This document shows positions 23,401 to 23,798 of a stretch of DNA of 64,000 bases, in pieces. Each line of letters starts with the position of its first letter. Position 1 is the first letter of the stretch. The notes under the pieces are model-generated. The model was not told where the DNA came from. It made no database searches and saw only the letters and a list, made by a program, of their open reading frames with translations. Source of the stretch: Octopus vulgaris (Eukaryota). The DNA is taken from the NCBI GenBank assembly GCA_951406725.2, contig OX597827.1:73470001-73534000 (forward strand), read 5' to 3'. Position numbers and translations under genes: made by a program.

Positions 23401-23798
23401 ATGCGACAAAGTCTCTCAGGAACGGGACTTTTGTCCTGTTACTGTGTGTTAGTAAACCTCTGATGTTCAGTAGGAGCATCGAGGTGAGGTGTATGCTGTT
23501 GCCGGCGTTGTCCACCCTGGGTCCATCTGCTGTGGCGGTCTTGTGAACTGTGGGCAGTTCCATCTGCGAGCCTGAGCCTGATGGAGCCAGGTTAGCTGCT
23601 GTACAATCTTTTGTGCCATGCACAAAAAAGATTCCTGCTCAGCAGCTGCCCTTTCAACAACACGTTGGTGGTTTGTGGTACGCACCACATCTGCGTACCT
23701 CCGTTTTGGGGCAGGTGATGCCTGGTCCATCCCATTTCCTTTCGGTGGTTGGTTTCTGTGGCAGGGTCCCGGATGTGCAAAGCGGCAGCCTGCACCTG
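20425..23798 (-). mobile_element. 5'-truncated CR1-group LINE (LINE-B) embedded in (TA)n
   Basis: ORF1 remnant starting inside a CCCH finger (GCRFAHP), complete ORF2 in three pieces, 3' stem-loop, (ATCA)n tail, (TA)n on both sides. Confidence 0.92.
20521..23629 (-). CDS. LINE-B ORF2: APE + RT, split by two 1-nt frameshifts (about 22140 and 21912)
   Basis: ORFs 22130-23623 ([24 protein letters not shown]), 21888-22097 (GPDG) and 20521-21867 ([23 protein letters not shown]). Confidence 0.9.

Follow-up and report, generated by a model that had tools for sequence, protein, structure and literature searches.

The window analysed here, a stretch of 64,000 nucleotides of Octopus vulgaris DNA, carries on its minus strand a truncated retrotransposon copy, LINE-B, whose two reading frames overlap. 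We take LINE-B to be CR1-like on its domain layout, a weak PHD match among its relatives and motifs familiar from that group; the outgroups of our tree are unnamed elements, with no named CR1 references among them. The features of this copy are as follows.

20451..23799, minus strand: LINE-B, CR1-like retrotransposon copy, 5'-truncated, with an (AATC)n tail at its end
23467..23796, minus strand: ORF1 remnant, with the end of the last Cys/His finger, the conserved Phe-Leu helix and the tail
23639..23641, minus strand: TGA, the final stop of the ORF2 frame upstream of the heptamer
23623..23629, minus strand: slippery heptamer U_UUU_UUG in -1 phase, the candidate shift site
23609..23627, minus strand: 8-bp hairpin containing the heptamer, not clade-wide
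23474..23622, minus strand: ORF1/ORF2 overlap, a -1-frame linker without stops from the heptamer to APE motif I
23561..23563, minus strand: in-frame AUG 22 codons past the heptamer, in the region least shared within the family
23477..23479, minus strand: in-frame AUG two codons 5' of APE motif I and 10 nt ahead of the ORF1 stop, a possible reinitiation start in the LINE-B family
22130..23638, minus strand: 5' piece of ORF2, with linker, APE endonuclease and tether, ending at a one-base break
20521..21924, minus strand: 3' piece of ORF2, with reverse transcriptase (RT) and C-terminal region, past the second one-base break

The 5' end of the copy, at about 23799, is cut by an (AT)n tract, the ORF1 stop codon lies at 23469-23467, and the APE and RT domains of ORF2 matched PF14529, PF03372 and PF00078. 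The original prediction had described an intact cassette of stop codon, slippery run and hairpin, and its letters are found exactly on the minus strand at 23641-23607; the word intact suits the cassette and not the copy, which is 5'-truncated and has two one-base breaks in ORF2. The reading of both frames was also correct: ORF1 encodes E-Q-E-S-F-L-C-M across the junction, the -1 frame opens past the TGA and stays open to 22130 across the APE domain, and U_UUU_UUG sits in the -1 phase. Both arms of the 8-bp stem (23627-23620 and 23616-23609) are present, and the alternative start that had been placed about 20 codons on is the AUG at 23563-23561, with a second AUG at 23479-23477. With a heptamer that ends in G and two AUGs, LINE-B is the weakest member of the clade to which it belongs.

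Further elements lie elsewhere in the window.

14477..18709, plus strand: LINE-A, ORF1 with Myb-like match and CCCH fingers, ORF2 with APE and RT
15577..15622, plus strand: LINE-A junction at the same Phe-Leu site, its T run one base short and without an in-phase heptamer as assembled
26009-31162, plus strand: third, unrelated LINE, ORF1 with a CCHC knuckle, ORF2 with APE, RT and zf-RVT
33658-33978, plus strand: 3' RT fragment of a further CR1-like copy
56438-57507, minus strand: 3' RT fragment of a further CR1-like copy, 62-71% identical to LINE-A in protein

The ORF2 proteins of LINE-A and LINE-B are 32% identical in the APE/tether part and 43% in the RT. Among named relatives, a protein of Argonauta hians (52%) comes nearest to LINE-A ORF2, a hint of a cephalopod host; the LINE-A ORF1 carries the Myb-like match where relatives have a weak PHD match, and this ORF1, used alone as a query, returned no homologue. 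The third LINE, presumably L1/Tx1-like, has no ORF overlap of the LINE-B kind. Every frame break in LINE-A, LINE-B, the third LINE and the fragment at 56.4-57.5 kb is a shortfall of one base (15590-15598, 18245-18255, 22140-22150, 21915-21925, 27400-27410, 28460, 29440, 56890, 57400 and 56610), several of them at homopolymer runs. These shortfalls look like long-read assembly error or decay, which would explain the short T run of LINE-A. A second in-phase heptamer of LINE-A, G_GAA_AAU at 15583-15589 (plus strand), lies at near-canonical spacing, 8 nt 5' of the 7-bp inner stem of the LINE-A hairpin; it is not kept in the LINE-B family.

Relatives were retrieved from metagenome contigs by protein alignment of the APE endonuclease and not by motif. 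This gave 55 loci, 26 of which, with weaker matches, were left out of the tree. LINE-A, LINE-B and 20 of the loci (L002-L021) form a clade of 22 rows (support 98/96) set against 10 outgroup rows, and within it LINE-A and LINE-B are not sisters. Scans of viral contigs returned one weak locus and those of prokaryote genomes one distant locus; an eukaryote-type LINE ORF2 on the contig of a bacterial MAG (L057) is likely host contamination. One clade locus, L011, was excluded from the junction set because its contig begins 3' of the site, and an in-phase heptamer is present in all 19 others. After near-duplicates (99-100%; L003, L008, L013 and L017, all four with the heptamer) were dropped, 15 distinct, diverged elements remained, making with LINE-B a set of 16 with an intact junction; counts given for 13 lineages leave out L014, L019 and L020. 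In a plain DNA alignment of LINE-A, LINE-B, L002 and L004 the junctions did not align, and the site was therefore defined on the alignment of ORF1 proteins. In this alignment, made from ORF1 proteins only, the Phe-Leu pair occupies a single column in all 16, between tandem Cys/His fingers and an amphipathic helix. PHD/PHD_4 matches below the Pfam cut-off occur in ORF1 of five of the seven relatives scanned, a region that is missing from the truncated LINE-B.

Comparison of the junctions of related families, which the original prediction had proposed, found both phase and heptamer kept at the aligned Phe-Leu site in 16 of 16 distinct elements: U_UUU_UUA in seven, G_GAU_UUU in six, G_UUU_UUA in two and U_UUU_UUG in LINE-B. 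A heptamer was counted when its XXX was three equal bases or GGA, GUU, GGU or UCC, with the last base free; UCC is a tolerated triplet that none of the 16 needs. Applied to ORF2 of the same elements, the same rule admits one of 52 Phe-Leu pairs and 17 of 370 Phe codons. Seven of the 16 fit the strict consensus X_XXY_YYZ (Z = A, C or U), and 15 fit once XXX may also be GGA or GUU, exceptions given in the part of PMC3542737 consulted; the exception is LINE-B, whose Z = G falls outside the consensus. In the part of a frameshift review that was searched, U_UUU_UUA is given as the shift site of HIV-1 and G_GAU_UUU as that of pea enation mosaic virus, with no UUU_UUG site among those named there (PMC5009743). 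The synonymous choices at the site follow the heptamer. The Phe codon is UUU in all 16, against a background of 157/370 (42%), and the Leu codon is UUA in nine of the ten elements where it lies within the heptamer, against 8%; in the six G_GAU_UUU elements, where Leu lies outside, it is always CUN. With the peptide taken as given, a heptamer would arise with a probability of 0.03 in LINE-B and of 0.03-0.25 in the other elements, and the pooled value of 10^-16 (13 lineages) is overstated because the 16 elements are related.

Could the ORF1 helix (S/D/H-F-L) simply be conserved as protein, with the U run as a by-product? Protein does account for part of what had been noticed. The letters AGCAGGAA, CATGGC and AAAAGA shared by LINE-A and LINE-B had been read as selection on RNA, and the codons for Q-E, M-A and K account for them; the likeness of the two junctions is partly one of peptide (QE-N/--SFL, Met-Ala), the Met standing in a different register in each. 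The helix is also widespread. A search with an ORF1 profile matched 3,166 protein clusters at E <= 0.001, the weaker of which may be PHD or low-complexity matches, and 685 at 1e-30; among the best 150 relatives, which include proteins of the loci studied, 135 retain x-F-L/F followed by the helix. Nonetheless, the fixed synonymous choice of UUU and UUA against their backgrounds largely refutes an explanation by protein alone, which moreover leaves ORF2 without a start, and we hold it to be very improbable. It also fails to account for the Leu of the site: L, I, M and V replace one another freely at the other hydrophobic positions of the helix, whereas this Leu is not exchanged unless D-F precedes it. 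Of the remaining 15 among the best 150, four have D-F-Q or D-F-R and one has E-F-T, the rest being truncated, shifted or without the site. Judging from these protein sequences, loss of Leu after D-F would be allowed by G_GAU_UUU, where Leu is not needed. The residue x is one without a U-ending codon (E, K, Q, M or W) in 4 of the 135, compared with 181/675 at positions -2 to -6; Ser, Asp, Thr or Asn preceding Phe also suits a helix N-cap, which confounds this bias.

In all 16 elements ORF1 and ORF2 overlap in the -1 phase, over 160-290 nt. Among the 13 lineages, the part of the ORF2 frame upstream of the site has stops at 41 of 513 codons and the part downstream at 0 of 650; for the third frame the corresponding counts are 11 of 514 and 61 of 650. 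ORF1 runs on for 53-96 codons past the site and, in every element, terminates at a distance of -4 to +74 nt from APE motif I. From the heptamer to APE motif I there is no in-frame AUG in 13 of the 16 (LINE-B, L009 and L016 have AUGs past the site), and because L002 has one upstream of the site, 12 are AUG-free all the way between the opening of the frame and APE motif I. AUGs are not depleted in the overlap, with 12.4 of 16 expected to be AUG-free from the ORF1 peptide; their absence, being at chance level, gives no sign of selection, yet ORF2 is left with no ordinary start. No 2A-like peptide was found in the linkers of the 16 elements. 2A-like motifs are known in other non-LTR elements, and a locus beyond this set, L028, has the 2A-like motif DIEPNPGP ahead of its APE domain (L028:483-600). 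Long proteins (901-2570 aa) with ORF1 and ORF2 fused were looked for and none turned up, which counts as weak evidence.

Junctions of other kinds are seen among the outgroups. In one LINE (L024:1008-1040) ORF1 ends in U_UUU_UAG, the ORF2 frame opens 7 nt earlier and is AUG-free up to the endonuclease; a stop-driven -1 slip is possible there. Two others have an in-phase A_AAA_AAC 30 nt past the opening of the ORF2 frame, where ORF1 encodes A-K-N-L (L035:1672-1678 and L037:1196-1202), a heptamer that is not usable in their relative L023.

Termination followed by reinitiation near the ORF1 stop is the route accepted for L1 and SART1 in the part of PMC2881922 consulted, and the constant closeness of this stop to APE motif I would suit it. 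LINE-B in particular offers two candidate starts, the AUG at 23479-23477, which precedes the ORF1 stop by 10 nt, and the one at 23563-23561, and has the weakest heptamer of the set. Reinitiation would leave unexplained why no stop interrupts the ORF2 frame over the 160-290 nt that reach back to the heptamer (0/650 against 41/513) and why particular Phe-Leu codons are chosen, and 12 of the 16 offer it no AUG. We consider it improbable as the route of the clade. A downstream AUG as an alternative start, as raised by the original prediction, is possible for LINE-B and not for most of its relatives; in LINE-B, reinitiation may operate alongside frameshifting.

Two further explanations place the event at the level of RNA. 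The U run could be the pyrimidine tract of a 3' splice site, with a spliced RNA joining upstream sequence to ORF2; an AG directly follows the run in five of the 16 and in LINE-A, and lies 9 nt after the start of the Phe codon in the six G_GAU_UUU elements. The distance to the end of the first AG is 21 nt in LINE-B and 16-18 nt in four others, with mixed phases, and splicing does not predict the phase-exact turnover of heptamers, so that we think this reading highly unlikely. The LINE-B family data are contigs, none recorded as RNA, and splice joints in them are uninformative. Alternatively, RNA polymerase might slip on the T run and add a base to some transcripts. Eight of the 16 elements do have six consecutive T, against only four in the six G_GAU_UUU elements and five in two others, and polymerase slippage does not predict the GGA-UUU pattern of tRNA re-pairing; of all the alternatives this seems to us the least credible, with hardly any chance of being right.

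What, then, of the remaining parts of the cassette? Eight of 13 lineages have a stop within five codons upstream where 6.4 would be expected, and we rejected the upstream stop as part of a signal. Variation within the LINE-B family was followed by aligning contigs of four runs (four organisms, three studies) to 23150-23795; the family is very abundant in these organisms, with 705-2401 contigs aligned per run. Variants occur at 23634, 23635 and 23638 within AGCAGGAA, the first two being the depth majority in three of the four runs, and AGCAGGAA was rejected as an RNA signal since it varies inside LINE-B's own family. Among 40 of the 56 variants none falls within 23594-23633, where the T run has no listed indel and depth peaks, and the G-ending heptamer and the stem therefore appear to be traits of the LINE-B family rather than slips of this copy. 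The subfamilies have 23590-23633 in common and diverge in the linker directly after.

The 8-bp hairpin of LINE-B is not clearly above chance: its z is -1.5, 14 of 200 shuffles are equally stable and so are 14% of synonymous variants. It was rejected as a stimulator on spacing and conservation: a stimulator usually lies 5-9 nt downstream of the heptamer, a place that a hairpin with the heptamer inside it cannot take. Downstream of the LINE-B heptamer z is +0.11 over 81 nt and -1.55 over 121 nt, with no stem-loop at 5-9 nt. Across the 13 lineages no conserved local structure was found, 50-nt windows between -80 and +130 nt having mean z values that depart from zero by no more than 0.9, and consensus folds of the subclades are weak or empty. 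Three of 16 windows (L016, L018 and L019) exceed 95% of their own synonymous null, which makes local stems possible in some members. L009, L010 and L016 have a weak stem in which the U run pairs with a purine tract, without compensatory change. These three also have, 5 nt past the heptamer, a 9-nt block that is invariant in the subclade even at synonymous positions (L009:3294-3302, L010:2561-2569 and L016:1021-1029), possibly a sequence stimulator or a dual-coding constraint.

A hairpin might still act together with the slip site in LINE-A and LINE-B, for instance by slowing ribosomes as they arrive or as an attenuator. The LINE-A hairpin, T run included, is markedly stable (z = -4.3, 0/200 shuffles as stable), the LINE-B family shows no variant within 23594-23633 among those 40, together with a depth peak, and the weak stem of L009, L010 and L016 would fit as well. 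Set against this are the low stability in LINE-B, the absence of the hairpin from other subclades, the position of LINE-A and LINE-B as non-sisters and the missing compensatory change in the U-run stem, and we regard a functional hairpin as doubtful. The stem had been put forward as a shared, selected signal, and the same absence in other subclades, weak or empty consensus folds and lack of compensatory change speak against that claim. Of the shared recoding signal as a whole, what survives is the in-phase -1 heptamer in 16 of 16, without the stop, AGCAGGAA or the hairpin.

The clade thus has an overlap in the right phase, a heptamer, a -1 frame open to the endonuclease and, in most members, no AUG. 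Because of the overlap, the in-phase heptamer in all 16, the 0/650 stops and the 12 of 16 AUG-free frames, -1 frameshifting is likely for the clade; on these sequence features, we are fairly confident that low-level -1 frameshifting at the conserved Phe-Leu heptamer yields an ORF1-ORF2 fusion. A small share of ribosomes would slip back one base at the heptamer and make the fusion, much as for retroviral Gag-Pol. The slip might involve tandem tRNA slippage, or slippage of one tRNA at a slow Leu codon, and its efficiency is presumably low, as no conserved downstream structure was found. The predicted product, of some 1,400 residues, would comprise PHD and CCCH fingers, a low-complexity linker of 50-115 residues, APE and RT, while ribosomes that do not slip would continue through the conserved helix and terminate 160-290 nt on. 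Neither the upstream stop nor the hairpin would be a required part. We lean, if only slightly, towards the broader possibility that an old and large clade of LINEs in animals, with ORF1 clusters numbering in the hundreds to thousands, would make its RT only as a Gag-Pol-like fusion at a bare heptamer without an RNA stimulator, HIV-type and umbravirus-type heptamers having been swapped during evolution.

The translation of LINE ORF2 is settled for few elements (L1 and SART1, by reinitiation), and a phase-exact slippery site throughout a clade would offer a defined and directly testable second route. The predicted fusion would tie chromatin- and RNA-binding fingers to the endonuclease and RT. 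The annotation of ORF2 is corrected as well, given that gene callers begin ORF2 proteins at internal codons. Moreover, the clade supplies many natural heptamers that seem, from their sequences, to work without the usual downstream structure. Older CR1 papers mention overlapping ORFs. In the open literature we found no account of the Phe-Leu shift site of this clade; a prior mention is possible in subscription papers, Repbase reports or the older CR1 papers, which lay outside the search.

Among known LINEs, close in architecture are the CR1-lineage elements with a PHD-bearing ORF1 described in the consulted part of PMC4120745, which share the APE and RT of ORF2 and the PHD weakly matched in our relatives; the clade studied here differs in its tandem CCCH-type fingers and Phe-Leu helix, and that part of the CR1/L2 ORF1 survey makes no mention of CCCH, frameshift or overlap. 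Human L1 and silkworm SART1 likewise have a bicistronic RNA in which translation of ORF2 depends on that of ORF1 (PMC2881922, in part); there reinitiation gives a separate ORF2p, whereas the overlap of 160-290 nt and the heptamer of our clade point to a fusion. Frameshifting itself has precedents in non-LTR elements. In the Drosophila element HeT-A it is reported for gag, with no direction named, in the searched part of PMC5009743, with the differences that the shift lies within gag and the element has no RT. For Dictyostelium TRE5-A and TRE3-A, which are also APE-type, a -1 frameshift is stated as needed for ORF2 (PMC5911963); these belong to the L1 clade and an amoeba host, and the legend text of that paper names no shift site. 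The nearest parallels are viral, namely HIV-1 gag-pol with U_UUU_UUA and pea enation mosaic virus, an umbravirus, with G_GAU_UUU, which in the parts of PMC5009743 and PMC3542737 consulted show identical heptamers, the same phase and a polymerase ORF without its own AUG. The elements described here differ from these in being non-LTR retrotransposons, in the final G of the LINE-B heptamer and in that no conserved stem-loop or pseudoknot was found at 5-9 nt downstream. For want of that structure we do not class the site as a canonical -1 frameshift signal, although in its working it would resemble those of retroviruses and umbraviruses.
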